Shown here piece by piece: positions 33,545 to 41,731 of a stretch of 64,000 nucleotides of DNA (positions are counted from its first letter, which is position 1; each line of letters starts with the position of its first letter). The notes under the pieces are model-generated. The model was not told the DNA's origin. It did no database searches and saw only the letters and a list, made by a program, of their open reading frames with translations. A program made the translations under genes and the position numbers. Source of the DNA: Candidatus Woesebacteria bacterium (GTDB lineage: Bacteria > Patescibacteriota > Microgenomatia > UBA1400 > UBA1396); NCBI GenBank assembly GCA_021208605.1, contig JAJOJK010000002.1, forward strand, positions 37,606 to 101,605, given 5' to 3'.

Positions 33545-34954
33545 ATGGCTTTACTTGAGAAAATCAGTAGATTACCAGGATTCAGAAGCCTCCTCCCTAA
33601 AAGAGTGGGAGATTTTTCAAGATTTAGACACATTGAGCCAGACGAAGATATTACTCGCCCTCCCAAAACTCCACCGCGGGAAGAACACATTTCTCCAGTT
33701 GTTCTAAATGAACGAAATAATAGAACATTTAAAAAAGGAATTGCCCTCTGTAAACCAGAAATACAACAAGCAATTCAGACTGCAAACGTAAACATAGAAT
33801 GGAAGACAGATTTTATTCGTCTGTTTTCGCGACTCGAAAGACTTCCACATTTACAGGTAATGCAGCTACGGCCAATTTCACTAAACCTTACAGACAATGA
33901 ATTACTAACCGCAAGTCCGTTTGCTCAACAACCACAATCGGTGATTTTTGACCCCGAGATTCGTTTCCATGGGACAAGCGCTCAAGTTTTTCCTGGTATG
34001 TCCTTAACTCTGGGAAAGGTGGCCGCCAAAATCCCCAAAGTACAAGAAAAAACAGATAAACCATACTTGAATGGATCTAGCCAACTCAATTTTGCTGCAG
34101 AAGCTTTTGCCCTGGCCGGAGAACAAACTCTAGGAACACCCGGCTTGTCCAAGTTTTATTTCCTTGGCACCCAACCATCTGGTGAAACAGTTTTTCTCAT
34201 GGAATACCATGACCCAAATAGTGAGTTTTCACTCGCCGATTTAATTCCACCTCCCGATGGCTTCAGTGCAGAAGAGATTCAAGTAATATTGGCCGCTCGC
34301 CAACCAGCAGTGTTGTCGAAACTTGTACAAAATATTTGTCTTACTTTGTCGAGTTTTCATTCGCCGCAGCGTCGACGTATAACTGCCTCTATAGATCCAT
34401 TTGACTCTTCTTTAACTATCCAAGATCGACCTTCACCAAATGCGTCCAAAGAAGAACTTCAACAACTCATCCATAGAGATTTAAAACCAGACAATATTCT
34501 AGGTAATCTATCTGGTAAAAGTACCATTTTAGACTTAGGATTCGCCAGTACAGTGCTCGAAACAACCTCTGACCAACAAGTAGGCACGCCAAAATACTCT
34601 TCTCGTGGCGAAGGTGCAGCATATGACATAAACAGTCTAGCCCTCCTTGTTCACGAAATCATTACCCGTGTCAATTATTGGCAAACTGCAATAGTTCCAG
34701 ACTATCTTCAGGCAATGGGCCTCACTGGAGCAGATCTCATTCAAGCATTGGCCTCCCTTCCGGAGATTCAGGGTAACTTGGCCATAGATAAAATTACTGC
34801 CTATTGCCAAACACACCGTATTCCATCACAACCACTTATTTCTTTTTTTGAGAGAGCCTTGCCAGGTCATGGGCCAGGATATACAGACGCTCAAGAATTT
34901 GCCGGTGACTTTGCGCAAGCTATGGGACAAAAACCTTCGAATCGTGTTCGCTAA
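33545..34954 (+). CDS. Eukaryotic-like Ser/Thr protein-kinase-domain protein with a ~140-aa N-terminal extension
   Basis: Catalytic loop HRDLKPDNIL, DLG (DFG-like), GTPKY, beta3 Lys in VAAKIPK and a degenerate Gly loop. It starts 5 nt after tRNA-Lys and is AT-rich. The ORF-track start at 33506 lies inside the tRNA and is rejected. Confidence 0.65.
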   Translation: MALLEKISRLPGFRSLLPKRVGDFSRFRHIEPDEDITRPPKTPPREEHISPVVLNERNNRTFKKGIALCKPEIQQAIQTANVNIEWKTDFIRLFSRLERLPHLQVMQLRPISLNLTDNELLTASPFAQQPQSVIFDPEIRFHGTSAQVFPGMSLTLGKVAAKIPKVQEKTDKPYLNGSSQLNFAAEAFALAGEQTLGTPGLSKFYFLGTQPSGETVFLMEYHDPNSEFSLADLIPPPDGFSAEEIQVILAARQPAVLSKLVQNICLTLSSFHSPQRRRITASIDPFDSSLTIQDRPSPNASKEELQQLIHRDLKPDNILGNLSGKSTILDLGFASTVLETTSDQQVGTPKYSSRGEGAAYDINSLALLVHEIITRVNYWQTAIVPDYLQAMGLTGADLIQALASLPEIQGNLAIDKITAYCQTHRIPSQPLISFFERALPGHGPGYTDAQEFAGDFAQAMGQKPSNRVR

Positions 34955-36131
34955 CAATGAAAATACTCGCCAGCACAATCCACGGATAAAAAATCACTGG
35001 TGCTCCCATCCCTGCTACGGCTAATACGCACCAATAGGGCCACTGCCTTCGGGATGAGTTTTTCCATAGAAAAAAAAGTGTGCCCAACAAAATACCAGCA
35101 CCCACTCCCCCACTCGTCAAAACGATTTGCAGGTATTGATTATCGACCATGCGGGCGTTGTTTGCTTTGTTCAGTTCTGGGTGCTCTCCGTATTGTTTTT
35201 GGAATGCTGCGTTCCGCTTCTCAGCAAAGGCTTCTAGATTCCATCCGCGTCCCAAAAGCATTTCTGTTACCTGCCAGTCATGGGTTTGGTAGGCAGTATG
35301 CTCCACCCGTTGTGTAATACTCTGGGTGCGTAGGAGGTTTTGTCCGGCTCCTCCACCGTCTTTTGGCAAGAGTACTAACGCAACCACAAGTATAGGGATA
35401 GCTAAAAGAACGCGTCGTTGTTTCTGAGCCAAGGCCAACGCTCCGATTCCGGCCACATACCCAACATACGCTAATCGAGAAAAACTGAGTGACATGGCAA
35501 TCAGGGCTACCGCGAAAAGTATGGCGTATACAAGTTGCTGTTTCCTCTTTACCCGTACACCAAGTTGGAAAAACCAAACACTCGCCAAAGACATCAAAAC
35601 ACCATAAAACGTCGGCTCAAAGAGCGTTGCGAATGCTCGACTGAGGTGATCATCCCATCCCAGAGTCGCAAGGATTCTTGTGTCGGGGAGGAAAAGATAC
35701 TGCCCGATTCCTAAGGCAGCCCAAGCAGTAAACCAGACAGATAGCAAGCGGGTGATCGAATGAACACGCCATCGAGATGTTTTCCAAACAGATACACTCG
35801 CCGCAAATGTCAGAAACAACGCAATCCGCAAAAGATATGCCAAGGACTGCCAATCGCTACTCACATTCAGGGGCCACATATAAAAGAGTGAAAGAGCCAG
35901 CGTCCACAGCCACCATAAACTCACGCCCCACCATATTTTTGAAGAGAAAAGTGTTTCCCAAAATGTCTTTCTCTTGGCCATGAAAAGTATGAAAACAGCC
36001 ATTCCAATTTCAAAAAGACTAATTTGTCCCAATGTTGTTGTAATCCGACCAAACTGTCCAAGCAAACTCAGCACGCCAATGGCGCCGAGTAAAAAATCTG
36101 GCCAGAGAATCTTATGCGTACCAAGCTTCAT
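34920..36131 (-). CDS. O-antigen-ligase/Wzy_C-family polytopic membrane protein
   Basis: 403 aa with about 10 TM helices and a large loop containing RMVDNQYLQIVLTSGGVGAGILL (Wzy_C-like). Confidence 0.55.
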   Translation of the reverse strand: MKLGTHKILWPDFLLGAIGVLSLLGQFGRITTTLGQISLFEIGMAVFILFMAKRKTFWETLFSSKIWWGVSLWWLWTLALSLFYMWPLNVSSDWQSLAYLLRIALFLTFAASVSVWKTSRWRVHSITRLLSVWFTAWAALGIGQYLFLPDTRILATLGWDDHLSRAFATLFEPTFYGVLMSLASVWFFQLGVRVKRKQQLVYAILFAVALIAMSLSFSRLAYVGYVAGIGALALAQKQRRVLLAIPILVVALVLLPKDGGGAGQNLLRTQSITQRVEHTAYQTHDWQVTEMLLGRGWNLEAFAEKRNAAFQKQYGEHPELNKANNARMVDNQYLQIVLTSGGVGAGILLGTLFFLWKNSSRRQWPYWCVLAVAGMGAPVIFYPWIVLASIFIVSEHDSKVFVP

Positions 36132-36903
36132 AGAGATAGACCCGCGTTATCAGTGAGTAGTAGGACATCAGGAGTGCATGCACCAGACCAGGAAAACCAT
36201 CCAGCGCTCCACGCCGCCAAAAATAATTTTGGAAAAACTTGGCCACCGGATATGTTAAAAGCTGTGTAATCAGGGTCAGTTTTGTCGTGCGATGCCGCGC
36301 TTTTGCCTCGAGCGAAGCGTACCACTGCAGTTTCTGCAAAAACTCTGTCACGGTCGGGTGCGGCGTGTGCAAGAGCGCGTGTTTGGTTGTGAGAACGCGT
36401 TCGGTGGGAATTTCCCAGACTTCGTGGACCGCGCGTTGCCACTTCCCCTGAGCAATATACGTGCGTGCGAGCCGCAGCACCGTTGTGTGACCGGTTTCTC
36501 CGTATCGTAACTGGTGCCCCAAAAAGATATCTCGCCGCGGAAAAAGCACCGCATCAAGTTCTTTTTCCTGCAAAGCGGTTGTAATCTCTTGCCACACCTC
36601 TGGCCCGGCATACTCATCGGCATCCAAAAAGAAAGTCCATTCAGTTTCGACTTGATCGAGAGCGTCATTGCGATGGCTGGCAAAATTTCCTTGCAGAGGG
36701 TTTTTCTCTACGCGCACCTTTTGGGAGAACTGCTGCAAATCAACTAAGGTAGTTTCATCTCCAGTGCCATCATCCCAGACCAAAATGTGCGCAACTCGCG
36801 GAGCGTATTCTTGCACTCTATCTGGTACCGGCTCCTCTCCAGCCTTACTGAGCAGCACGAGAGTGAGTGGTAATTGTGTTATTTTTCCCATAAACGTATC
36901 CAA
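36112..36903 (-). CDS. Family-2 glycosyltransferase
   Basis: DxD motif in FFLDADEY. Confidence 0.6.
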   Translation of the reverse strand: MDTFMGKITQLPLTLVLLSKAGEEPVPDRVQEYAPRVAHILVWDDGTGDETTLVDLQQFSQKVRVEKNPLQGNFASHRNDALDQVETEWTFFLDADEYAGPEVWQEITTALQEKELDAVLFPRRDIFLGHQLRYGETGHTTVLRLARTYIAQGKWQRAVHEVWEIPTERVLTTKHALLHTPHPTVTEFLQKLQWYASLEAKARHRTTKLTLITQLLTYPVAKFFQNYFWRRGALDGFPGLVHALLMSYYSLITRVYLYEAWYA

Positions 36904-37676
36904 AAATTTGCTATTGCACCGGAAAATCCATAGTGCTTTTGTAACCAGTAGCGGCGTGAGGCGCGAAAATGATGCGCTACACTTGGCAGCTGCTTCGTGG
37001 AGTGTTGCCCAAAATGGACTACTGATGCGGTTGCTAAAAAATAGACTTCTTTATCGAGCTGAGAACGTACTCGCTGTGCCAGGTCAAACTCTTCAAAGTA
37101 CAAAAACATGTTTTCGTCACAGCCACCAATGGCTAAGAATTCTTCGCGTCGCATCATAAAACACGAGCCACTCACGCTTGGCACTGGCCGCGAAGATCGA
37201 TGATCAAATCCCCACAAGCGATAGTGTTCTCTATATGATCCAAACGCCGACAGATTCCCAAGCCAAGAATACACAATGGCCGCTTCCAAAGCCGTGGGCA
37301 CGGTACTTGAAGTAATCTGAACAGCGCCTGTTTCATCAAGTATTTGCGGGCCAATTAAACCGATTTGCGGATGAGCTCCTAAGAATTCATAGAGTGCATC
37401 AATGGCGTCTGTGGTCACGTAGACATCTGGATTCACAAAGAGTACTCCTTCACCGTGGGCTTGTTCCGCGCCGCGATTACACCCCTCTCCGAATCCGGCC
37501 TGGCCATCGGAATTATCAATCACTATGCACTCGATATGATCTGCCGATTTCAAGCTCTGTTGAATTTTTTGCACGAGCTTGTCGGCGCGATAATTGACAA
37601 TCACCACCGAAATAAGGATTCGCTTACCGCGCATGTGAGATCCTTCTAAGCGCTTGCCGCAGTACGAACCAGGCAT
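36879..37676 (-). CDS. Family-2 glycosyltransferase
   Basis: VVIVNYR...VIDNSDG. The real start may be the M at MRGKRILISV. Confidence 0.6.
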   Translation of the reverse strand: MPGSYCGKRLEGSHMRGKRILISVVIVNYRADKLVQKIQQSLKSADHIECIVIDNSDGQAGFGEGCNRGAEQAHGEGVLFVNPDVYVTTDAIDALYEFLGAHPQIGLIGPQILDETGAVQITSSTVPTALEAAIVYSWLGNLSAFGSYREHYRLWGFDHRSSRPVPSVSGSCFMMRREEFLAIGGCDENMFLYFEEFDLAQRVRSQLDKEVYFLATASVVHFGQHSTKQLPSVAHHFRASRRYWLQKHYGFSGAIANFWIRLWEK

Positions 37677-38883
37677 ATGGATGAACCACTACAAAGGCAA
37701 AGAACACCGCCCAGCTAGCACCTGGCAATCCGTAGCGCGGCGCTAAGAAAACAATTCCAAGAATCAAAACAAACATCATAATGATGTTCATCACAAAATG
37801 GTGCTGCAAATTGTTCGCCAAAATTGAAAGTGGATTCCAGCTAGTAATAAACGCTTTTGCGACACCTGCGAGGAACAAAATTCGTACGATTGGTGTGACA
37901 ACGAGCCATTCTTCGCCAAGTACAAAATAGACTAACGGTTGCGTGAAGAACAGAAATGGCACCGCTGCGAAAAGAAAAACAACCGTAAGCGCCACGACAG
38001 AAAACTGCCAAGTCTTGGTGATACTCTTTTTCCGTTCAACTTTTTGTGCGTACATTGGGTACAGCGTCTGACCCACTATCGAACCGAAATCCATTGTGGC
38101 AGCACTTGCCAGTTTGTATGCGGTTTGATAAAAACCGAGAGCAGTAAATCCAAGGTACTTTCCAATAAGAAAGTCGTCAATATTTTCAGTCAAGTAATGC
38201 ACAATACTGGTGCCGATAATGTACTTCGACTCTTGAAACAACGAAACGACTCGACTCCATTGCGCCTTGAGAAGATTTGGTCGTTCCGGAAAGAGCGAAA
38301 AGGAAAGAATCACTTCCGCAACAACAGCAGCTGCGATTCCCAACAACAATCCGATACCATTTTGGAGCCAAATCGCCAAAACACCTCCCAGTACTAAGTC
38401 GATCACCTGAACACCTATGCGCAGTGCAGACTCGCGCTCAAACTGCAGTCGTTGCTGAAACTGCACAATGGCGGGATTGATAAAACCCCGCAGAAAAGGA
38501 ATAATCGCGGCAATAGATAAGTAATAGGTCAAACTCGGCTGGTCATAAAATTGTGCCAACAATGGAGCACACAAAAGAATACCGAGACTAATCAGAGTGC
38601 CGCGAAACAGTGAGACTACCCAAGCGGTGTCATAGTACCAGGCAAATTTTTTGGGCTGCTTGAGCAATACAACATTAATGCCAGTTTCCGTAAAGACTTC
38701 GGTTACGGAAATAACGAGTACCGACAATCCAAACAAACCAAGCTGTTCGGGACCCAGAATGCGAGCAATGATCGCTAAACGCACCAGTGTCAGAAACTTC
38801 GTGAAATACTTCATGAATGAAATTGCCGAGATCCCACGGACCGCAACAGATGAATGAGCGCGATGGAACAGTGTTTTAAGCAT
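37624..38883 (-). CDS. Wzx-like MOP-superfamily polysaccharide flippase
   Basis: 419 aa with 12-14 TM helices, resembling the polysaccharide biosynthesis protein family. Confidence 0.6.
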   Translation of the reverse strand: MLKTLFHRAHSSVAVRGISAISFMKYFTKFLTLVRLAIIARILGPEQLGLFGLSVLVISVTEVFTETGINVVLLKQPKKFAWYYDTAWVVSLFRGTLISLGILLCAPLLAQFYDQPSLTYYLSIAAIIPFLRGFINPAIVQFQQRLQFERESALRIGVQVIDLVLGGVLAIWLQNGIGLLLGIAAAVVAEVILSFSLFPERPNLLKAQWSRVVSLFQESKYIIGTSIVHYLTENIDDFLIGKYLGFTALGFYQTAYKLASAATMDFGSIVGQTLYPMYAQKVERKKSITKTWQFSVVALTVVFLFAAVPFLFFTQPLVYFVLGEEWLVVTPIVRILFLAGVAKAFITSWNPLSILANNLQHHFVMNIIMMFVLILGIVFLAPRYGLPGASWAVFFAFVVVHPYAWFVLRQALRRISHAR

Positions 38884-39901
38884 GCGTAGACCGGTCTTGT
38901 CTTTGATTATACAGGCGTTGCATGAGTCCTGTCAGTGTCCCAGACAAAACGGCCGTATCCGTCATGAATTGGTACCAGGGGTACAGAAGCCAGGATTGGG
39001 CAAAACGGAATCGGAAACGTCTGCCCTTAATACCAATATAGGCACTGAGAACAAGAAAAAGCGCAAAAACACTCCAAAATACTGAATTGGTGCGCCACAG
39101 CAGAAAAGCGGTCACTGCCAAAAAGAAAAGGTAGCGCATCCACATACTCGCATGTCCCCATCGCCATGTAGCAGCCAGCATGTCGCCACGAGTTAGGTGG
39201 AAAATCATACGCCAGTAGGCAAGCGCGGTTGTTCGCGGTGTCCAGACAACTTCTGCATCTGGCACAAAAACTGATTGGAATCCTTTCAATTCGGCGCGAC
39301 GCGACCACTCAAAATCTTCGGCATAGTTCAGATCATCTCGGAATGGGCCAATTTCTTGCCAGGCAGAAACACGCACCGCCATATTTCGCGTAGCGGGTAA
39401 GGGATGAGTCCCAATTTTTTCTCTCGACACTAACACAAATGCAGACTGAACTTCTTCTGCTGGTGAAGTCTCAGCGCCGCGAGTATAGCCAGAAACCAAT
39501 TGAACACCAGACAGTGAAAATGCGTGAATAATACTTTCGAGCCAAGAGGCAGACAGTTGGCAACCGGCGTCAGTAAAGCATACTACCGTTCCACTCGCTG
39601 CATCGACGGCACGGTTTCTTCCAGTAGATCGAGTAGCACTCCCTGGGATTGAAATAGCCTGTACTTTGATTCCTTTTGGACGCCAATTGTGCGCGACGCC
39701 AAGCGAATCATCACTCGATTCGGCCACAGTAATGACTACTTCATCAGGCAAAACAGTTTGTTTTTCTAAATCGTGCAGCAGTTCTTGCAGCGCAGCGGCG
39801 TCGTTTTTTACCGTTACAATCACTGAGAATCGCTGCTGCTGCATATGCGTAGTATCGCAAACCGTACACTTTTTGTCAGTATCAGGCGATATGGTTGACA
39901 C
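38876..39901 (-). CDS. Family-2 glycosyltransferase with C-terminal membrane anchor
   Basis: FSVIVTVKND followed by C-terminal TM helices. The start is likely the internal MQQQRFSV. Confidence 0.6.
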   Translation of the reverse strand: MSTISPDTDKKCTVCDTTHMQQQRFSVIVTVKNDAAALQELLHDLEKQTVLPDEVVITVAESSDDSLGVAHNWRPKGIKVQAISIPGSATRSTGRNRAVDAASGTVVCFTDAGCQLSASWLESIIHAFSLSGVQLVSGYTRGAETSPAEEVQSAFVLVSREKIGTHPLPATRNMAVRVSAWQEIGPFRDDLNYAEDFEWSRRAELKGFQSVFVPDAEVVWTPRTTALAYWRMIFHLTRGDMLAATWRWGHASMWMRYLFFLAVTAFLLWRTNSVFWSVFALFLVLSAYIGIKGRRFRFRFAQSWLLYPWYQFMTDTAVLSGTLTGLMQRLYNQRQDRSTHA

Positions 39902-41731
39902 ATGTCGCGATGGCTAATGCGTTTGGGAGTTGTGACCACTGTGTGGTGGAGCATGTGTTTTCTTTGCTCGCCAGCGCTTGCCACGTCTGTCTTCCAGTCT
40001 GATTTTTCTGATTCGATTGCCTGGCAAGAGGTGTTTAACAGCCAGGTTGATGCACCCGACCAGACGTGTCGTGGAGCAGATGGCGAGCACCATTGGTCTG
40101 TCGGAAATGGAGAGGCCAGACTGCAGATTACGCAAAGTGTGCCCTGTAAAGCAGTGATTGTCGCTCAAGAGGATATTCCATGGCCAGAAGTGGCTGATAT
40201 CTCCTTTGATATGGACCTAACGATCGCTGAAATGGACCGAAATCTGCTCATTCGTTGGCAGGACGCCAATAACTATCTTGGTTTTCACCTCTTTGGAAAC
40301 ACAGTGACACTAGAAAAGGTAATTGATGGAAACACGTATGCCGTTTCGCCCCAAGCAGTGTATTTTCATTTCGAAAATTTCAAGACGTACTCCGTTCGTA
40401 TGCACTATGACCAAACCGCTGGAGTAATTCGCCTTTGGTTTGATGACGAGCTGATCTATACCGGTCAGGAGCATTCATCAGACCCACAACTCACCAGAGG
40501 GAAACCCGCCCTCGGCGGCAGTGTTGGCGCGGTCCGTACATCCACAGTAGTTTTTCGTAATTACTCTTTGCAAGATATCGGTGAGGAACTTACGCTCTCT
40601 GTCCCAGCATTCCGCCAAAATAATCCGCTGTGGACCGAAATTGAGTATGACACAGCCAGTAGGTGGACTTCGGAATCACCGACGATCGGCCGCTGGGGTT
40701 GTGCCCTCACTAGCGCCGTGATGGTATTGCGGTATCACGGAATCACCGCTTTGCCAGATGGGCGGAGTATTGACCCTTTGACACTCAACACTTGGCTCCA
40801 CAACCAGCCGGACGGCTATATTTCTCCTGGACTAGTAAACTGGCGCGCTCTTACCCGGCTGACTTGGTGGCACAAAGAAGCATTCGGCACACCGGCACTA
40901 GAAATGCACTCTGAACTGCTGACCGAAAACGCAATAGCGTGGTCAAAAAACTCACTGCAGTCTGCGGTCCCACCGATTTTTGATCATGGCGGTCATTTCA
41001 CTGTCGGGTATGCGTATGGCCCAGGTGAATCTCAGATCCATCTGCATGATCCGTTGGGTGAAAAACAAACACTGCAGGACTATCATAATACTGTGCACTC
41101 GGCTCGTGTCTTTGTGCCAAGTCACACCGATCTGCGCGCAATCTCGTTACTGGTACAACCAGGAACACGCGCCACTTTTGCCAGCAACGATGAACCACTG
41201 CAGATTGAGCCAATACCGCTTTTTGCACTAGAAAGTGCCTCTTCTCTCCCTCTCTACTGGCTGTATGATCTCCCCCAACCGCCTGATTCACTCACTTTCA
41301 CCATCTCCACCCAACTTCCTGCCGATACTCCACAGCTGCTCACCTACGCTCGCGATGGTTCGCTCACAAGTCAAAAAACTTGGCTGCAGACGTCGCACAC
41401 TGACTTCCAAGGTTCCATTTACGCTACCGAAGATACCGTACAGGCAGATTTCTCTCTGCCTCCGCTCAACCAAAGCCAACCTGTTTTCTCGCCGCTCGCT
41501 CTGCATACTTGGCTGTCGTGGGGTGATATTCGTTCTCCTCTCATTACGCAGTTTGTGGCAGAACAGTATGCTCAGTTGCACAATGCTCCGACGCAAACTG
41601 AAGCCGAAGAGATCAGTAATTTCTTTATGGCCAAGCTTACCTCATGGCATCAGTTGAGTTGGATTACAGCGAGCTCCTATCAGGCCCTCACGCTGGCGTG
41701 GCACCAGAGCCTGCTCGATCGCTTCCCCTGA
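39902..41731 (+). CDS. Secreted two-domain protein: N-terminal concanavalin/LamG-like beta-sandwich plus C39-like (papain-fold) peptidase domain
   Basis: Signal peptide. GRWGCALTSAVMVLRYHGI matches the catalytic-Cys motif of C39-like domains, and HGGHFTVGYAY supplies a His. The start may be the MRLGVV codon at 39917. Confidence 0.5.
   Translation: MSRWLMRLGVVTTVWWSMCFLCSPALATSVFQSDFSDSIAWQEVFNSQVDAPDQTCRGADGEHHWSVGNGEARLQITQSVPCKAVIVAQEDIPWPEVADISFDMDLTIAEMDRNLLIRWQDANNYLGFHLFGNTVTLEKVIDGNTYAVSPQAVYFHFENFKTYSVRMHYDQTAGVIRLWFDDELIYTGQEHSSDPQLTRGKPALGGSVGAVRTSTVVFRNYSLQDIGEELTLSVPAFRQNNPLWTEIEYDTASRWTSESPTIGRWGCALTSAVMVLRYHGITALPDGRSIDPLTLNTWLHNQPDGYISPGLVNWRALTRLTWWHKEAFGTPALEMHSELLTENAIAWSKNSLQSAVPPIFDHGGHFTVGYAYGPGESQIHLHDPLGEKQTLQDYHNTVHSARVFVPSHTDLRAISLLVQPGTRATFASNDEPLQIEPIPLFALESASSLPLYWLYDLPQPPDSLTFTISTQLPADTPQLLTYARDGSLTSQKTWLQTSHTDFQGSIYATEDTVQADFSLPPLNQSQPVFSPLALHTWLSWGDIRSPLITQFVAEQYAQLHNAPTQTEAEEISNFFMAKLTSWHQLSWITASSYQALTLAWHQSLLDRFP

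Follow-up and report, generated by a model that had tools for sequence, protein, structure and literature searches.

Organization of the locus

The window is the whole stretch of 64,000 nucleotides of Candidatus Woesebacteria DNA that was analysed. Within it, a gene for a secreted-type protein with a C39-like domain is located next to a divergently transcribed glycan cassette. The open reading frame is exactly that of the preliminary description. The following features were assigned.

39902..41731, plus strand: the whole gene, 609 aa, ATG start
39917, plus strand: alternative start at Met6, giving the 604-aa form in public assemblies (100 % identical)
39902..39985, plus strand: Sec-type signal peptide, residues 1-28, with R3/R7 in the n-region, a hydrophobic core and an A-L-A/T cleavage-type motif (sequence inspection)
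39986..40582, plus strand: Concanavalin-A-like/DUF1080-like beta-sandwich, residues 29-227 (fold model, Foldseek, family alignment)
40583..41137, plus strand: C39-like (Peptidase_C39_2-type) papain-fold catalytic domain, residues 228-412 (Pfam, domain model, family profile)
41138..41461, plus strand: second beta-sandwich, Ig-like, residues 413-520 (AlphaFold model, family alignment)
41462..41728, plus strand: C-terminal four-helix region, residues 521-609 (AlphaFold model, family alignment)
39845..39901, between the divergent genes: short intergenic region of 57 bp (72 bp with the target start at 39917)
38876..39844, minus strand: divergent partner, a membrane-anchored GT2 glycosyltransferase (the mechanical ORF reaches 39901)
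37624-38883, minus strand: Wzx-type MOP flippase
36879-37676, minus strand: GT2
36112-36903, minus strand: GT2
34920-36131, minus strand: Wzy_C/O-antigen-ligase-like protein; the cassette beyond the partner gene covers 34920..38883 as a whole

The product has five parts: the signal peptide, a ConA-like sandwich, a C39-like papain fold, a second sandwich of Ig-like type and a helical bundle at the C-terminus. The AlphaFold model of the whole product had a mean pLDDT of 89.3. When the window protein was used as the query, no family was returned by NCBIfam and no match by a single-sequence search of the PDB. The whole-family profile gave only weak matches against PDB sequences, namely 3imm (DUF1080; E 0.043) and 3erv (E 0.7).

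Export signal and non-catalytic domains

The N-terminus of the window protein, MSRWLMRLGVVTTVWWSMCFLCSPALA followed by TS after the cut, contains two Arg residues, a hydrophobic core and an A-x-A site. The charged n-region, the h-region and the small-x-small motif all point to Sec export and SPase I cleavage. A lipoprotein reading was rejected, since Leu precedes Cys22 and there is no lipobox. In the AlphaFold model the signal region is a helix (residues 2-21) followed by a low-pLDDT linker (22-27), and no TM-like stretch beyond the signal peptide was found by the hydropathy script. The same signal-peptide pattern was found in 43 of 48 homologues by inspection and the same script, in agreement with the signal peptide proposed in the preliminary description.

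That description had also proposed a concanavalin/LamG-type sandwich, and the fold was recovered here. Residues 31-225 are all-beta, with pLDDT mostly >90, and are arranged as a two-sheet jelly roll. Foldseek matched this region to botulinum-toxin HCN jelly rolls, CBM66, the SraP lectin and Emp46p/47p, which are L-type lectins. The E values were 2.5e-8 to 5e-7, of the order of 1e-8 to 1e-7, and the TM scores reached 0.6 relative to the target. At the profile level, the N-terminal domains of the relatives matched PF06439 in 12 of 48 (best 3.5e-11) and Laminin_G_3 in 2 of 48; the window domain itself had no Pfam match at E <= 1. W41, W65, D112, N114 and G209 are near-invariant across the family. 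A Cys56-Cys82 disulfide is likely, because the two cysteines strictly co-occur (36/36). In this domain no residues of a known sugar- or metal-binding site were recognised.

The two C-terminal regions are less conserved. The Ig-like sandwich keeps little more than P460 and Y482, and the four-helix region is poorly conserved in sequence, yet it is present in all full-length relatives. No family assignment was found for either of them.

The catalytic domain

The full-length fold search was dominated by the N-terminal lectin-like domain; residues 228-412 were therefore modelled alone. The domain model was of high quality (pLDDT 95.3, pTM 0.92), and its best Foldseek match was 3erv (E 8.9e-5). Similarly, the domain-only profile matched 3erv (E 0.013) and LahT (E 0.11) in the PDB, with motif-level alignments. 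The catalytic positions are as follows.

40616..40618, plus strand: CAA codon of Gln239, candidate oxyanion-hole residue, invariant
40700..40702, plus strand: TGT codon of Cys267, invariant, predicted nucleophile that opens the central helix, aligned with Cys27 of LahT147
40994..40996, plus strand: CAT codon of His365, invariant, predicted general base located where a beta-strand begins, aligned with His101 of LahT147
41048..41050, plus strand: GAT codon of Asp383, in an invariant D-P motif that directly follows the next strand, aligned with Asp117 of LahT147

The model has the topology of a papain-like fold, with Cys267 as the first helix residue and His and Asp on consecutive strands. The Cys-His geometry is read from this topology and from the structural superposition scores of the predicted model, and the three residues were placed on Cys27/His101/Asp117 of LahT147 by profile alignment. 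The motifs of the window protein are GRWGCALTSAVMVLRYHGIT at residues 263-282 and DHGGHFTVGY at 361-370, and the domain closes with a near-invariant PSHTDL motif (residues 406-411). Asp383 and the upstream Gln239, which are also invariant, were not named in the preliminary description.

PF13529 (Peptidase_C39_2) matched the window protein over residues 233-384, corresponding to profile positions 2-142 of 143, with an E value of 1.3e-4. The score, 22.9 bits, falls just short of the gathering cut-off of 24. Among the 48 aligned relatives, 45 matched PF13529 at E <= 0.01 (best E 3.2e-14), and precomputed PF13529 assignments are present on many database relatives. The papain fold with a Cys...His pair that the preliminary description proposed is supported; both residues are invariant across the family and align with the triad of LahT147, a characterised C39 peptidase. 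The transglutaminase-like alternative raised at the same time was rejected, as neither profile nor fold supports it.

Conservation is highest in the catalytic domain, with 45 % mean pairwise identity compared with 15-26 % in the other domains. Q239/C267/H365/D383 are invariant in the alignments of 48 and of 69 sequences, including relatives with other N-terminal domains. A catalytically dead C39-like domain was rejected on this invariance. The same data bear on whether the protein could be non-proteolytic, either a binding-only domain as in HlyB or an enzyme of glycosidase type. An archaeal C39-like protein has been reported to hydrolyse pNP-beta-galactoside and not peptides (PMC13642728), and the neighbourhood described below is glycan-related. 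However, CLDs lack the catalytic Cys (PMC6363468), whereas Cys, His, Asp and Gln are all kept here; the archaeal protein carries Asn in place of Asp and its reported activity is very low (PMC13642728); and no glycosidase family was matched in Pfam or NCBIfam. A non-proteolytic role is thus considered very improbable.

The structural neighbours of the domain are mixed. They include wall peptidases (PeiR), leader-peptide peptidases (LahT, ComA), general proteases (staphopain, SpeB) and the acyl- or transpeptidases phytochelatin synthase and CtaG. These neighbours span several enzyme types and point to no single substrate class. NlpC/P60 and CHAP were absent from the Pfam matches and from the listed structural neighbours, and a wall-peptidase role is proposed by analogy with PeiR and the C39-like endolysin domains. 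Neither the whole protein nor the catalytic domain matched PHROGs, and there is thus no direct tie of the window protein to phage lysins.

Family distribution and gene neighbourhood

The family contains 1143 cluster representatives at 50 % identity, among which one architecture of about 600 aa prevails. Those relatives with taxonomic names are Patescibacteria, mostly of the Microgenomates group, and some already carry the NCBI label "C39 family peptidase". In some relatives the N-terminal domain is replaced by Kelch or PQQ beta-propellers, with a constant catalytic domain. The gene is real and is an ordinary member of a known enzyme type; the new point is its genomic context.

The divergent Wzy/Wzx/GT2 cluster of the preliminary description was recovered on the minus strand as GT2, a Wzx-type flippase, two further GT2 genes and Wzy_C. 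It had been described as having almost no spacer to the target gene. The gap is indeed very short, but the abutment at 39901/39902 came from mechanical ORF calling, and with gene-caller starts the distance is 57-72 bp. In contig L001, which is 99.99 % identical, the gene caller starts the GT2 from MQQQ at 39844 and the target from Met6 at 39917. The divergent region of 57-72 bp must carry both promoters. A promoter and terminator scan around the gene gave counts at chance level, and an NCBIfam scan of the partner glycosyltransferases gave sub-threshold, non-specific matches only (MftF-like, ArnC/PgfS-like).

The same arrangement was present in 7 of 7 inspected annotated loci, from 100 % down to about 24 % identity. 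The context was then counted over 81 non-redundant loci. The upstream gene was divergent in 55/70 and belonged to MT/GT4/GT2 in 50/70; rescanning added 3 more GTs, giving a methyltransferase or glycosyltransferase in at least 53/70. The MT/GT4/GT2 background at distant positions was 12/359, about 3%. Searching with the partner GT2 gave 23 matches, one of them the window's own genome, and its full-length relatives lie divergent to the C39-like gene at 21 further non-redundant loci. The flanks also include Dus, signal peptidase I and core genes, in keeping with a housekeeping role. Dus, which is functionally unrelated, is kept downstream in 22 of 74 loci, and the adjacency to glycan genes may in part reflect inherited synteny and not function.

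The tight pairing with glycan-assembly genes would fit a ligase. In such an acyl-transferase or transpeptidase, an amine or glycan-linked acceptor would resolve the Cys267 thioester, and a peptide or protein might for instance be joined to the glycopolymer of the adjacent cassette. Against this, no transglutaminase or BtrH Pfam match was found in the window protein or the 48 relatives, hydrolytic C39 or C39-like peptidases are both its nearest neighbours and the sole source of profile matches, and the sequence itself holds nothing that separates transfer from hydrolysis. Transfer activity is accordingly regarded as quite unlikely.

A partner-directed effector was also weighed. The lectin-like domain would bind a host glycan and the peptidase would cut wall or surface proteins of the host, serving attachment or nutrient release by an epibiotic bacterium. 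The predicted secretion agrees with this, and the Kelch and PQQ swaps next to a constant catalytic domain fit a diversifying target recognition. However, the core-gene neighbourhood (GT cassette, Dus, signal peptidase) is stable family-wide, to about 24 % identity, and the single architecture of about 600 aa prevails throughout the cluster representatives. Nor was any mobile-element or secretion-system gene found near the gene, and no immunity-like neighbour is conserved. The effector role is therefore judged unlikely, and less likely than that of a housekeeping envelope enzyme.

Proposed function

On balance, the product is probably a Sec-exported, catalytically competent C39-like papain-fold peptidase that acts as a glycan-guided endopeptidase of the cell envelope, an extracytoplasmic housekeeping enzyme, in Microgenomates-type Patescibacteria. 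The analysis shows the domain architecture, the fold, the invariant catalytic set, the export signal and the conserved pairing with glycan genes; the peptidase activity, the substrate and the glycan binding are inferred. The signal peptide would be removed after A-L-A. The ConA-like sandwich, stabilised by the putative Cys56-Cys82 disulfide, would let the enzyme dock to a glycan or glycoconjugate at the cell surface; the most plausible target, because the gene pairing is conserved, is the product of the divergent GT2/Wzx/GT2/GT2/Wzy_C cassette. Cys267 may then cut a peptide or isopeptide bond of an envelope substrate, with His365 to activate it, Asp383 to orient it and Gln239 close to the oxyanion. 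The substrate is guessed, by analogy, to be a wall peptide, either a peptidoglycan stem or a cross-link. The second choice is a surface (glyco)protein, cleaved for maturation or shedding.

Less probably, and as a tentative reading, the C39-like protein and the divergent cassette could form one conserved envelope-biogenesis module specific to Microgenomates-type Patescibacteria, in which the enzyme performs the extracytoplasmic finishing step for the glycoconjugate of the cassette. It might process a glycosylated surface protein or anchor it, or else link the glycopolymer to wall peptides or release it from them. Such a role, if true, would be undescribed for any C39-like enzyme.

Because the genomes of Patescibacteria are tiny and their secreted enzymes very few, any exported hydrolase is probably important at the cell surface, where these bacteria meet their hosts. 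A known substrate would reveal how these uncultured bacteria assemble or reshape their envelope, and would anchor the function of PF13529, a broad family for which we know of no defined physiological role. The annotation is sound and the context observation useful, and the result is not a surprise.

Comparison with known systems

The jelly-roll fold of the N-terminal domain is shared with DUF1080 / 3-keto-disaccharide hydrolase (PF06439), CBM66, Emp46p and BoNT HCN. Compared with the PF06439 and LamG families, the window domain shows no significant Pfam match.

The staphopains and streptopain (C47, C10) are unrelated in sequence to the window protein except for the catalytic residues, and the window protein has neither their type of N-terminal prodomain nor an adjacent staphostatin-like inhibitor gene. 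The PF03412 leader peptidases (LahT150/147, ComA PEP, PCAT1) have a triad equivalent to Cys267/His365/Asp383, and both groups have an upstream Gln. However, the Gln-to-Cys spacing is 28 residues in the window protein and about 6 in the leader peptidases, and the window protein is exported and not fused to an ABC transporter, whereas the leader peptidases are cytoplasmic. PF03412 was not matched by the window protein and was matched by 1 of 48 relatives. A classical double-glycine leader peptidase was rejected, as there is no transporter domain and no bacteriocin or double-glycine precursor gene was found in the neighbourhood.

The pseudomurein endoisopeptidase PeiR (PDB 8z4h) combines a wall-binding module with extracellular cleavage of wall peptides, a modular logic similar to that of the ConA-like and C39-like domains. 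The C39-like N-terminal domains of phage endolysins (mycobacteriophage LysA 'N5') follow an analogous logic. In contrast to the window protein, these enzymes use other targeting modules; the window protein has no detectable sequence similarity to them, no phage context and no PHROG match. PF13529 and 3erv-like domains have been used or found as lysin domains, and elsewhere PF13529 genes are located near teichoic-acid transporter genes (PMC10318531). In a complete Microgenomates genome only four secreted peptidases were reported, one of them assigned to C39 (PMC7143001) and of only possible kinship to the window family.

The closest comparison is with PF13529 and the Bacillus anthracis "putative C39-like peptidase" (PDB 3erv), likewise a standalone, secreted-type papain fold that is not fused to a transporter. 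To our knowledge, no function has been demonstrated for 3erv. The window domain and 3erv share the motifs GC..TS.aM.L.y.G and H..V..G......I.DP, although their identity is only about 17-21 %. Unlike 3erv, the window family has a conserved insertion (P292...N296xWL...D304GY...G310..NW..R319) in the segment that joins the Cys helix to the sheet, and its catalytic domain sits within a five-part architecture of signal, ConA-like, C39-like, Ig-like and helical regions.

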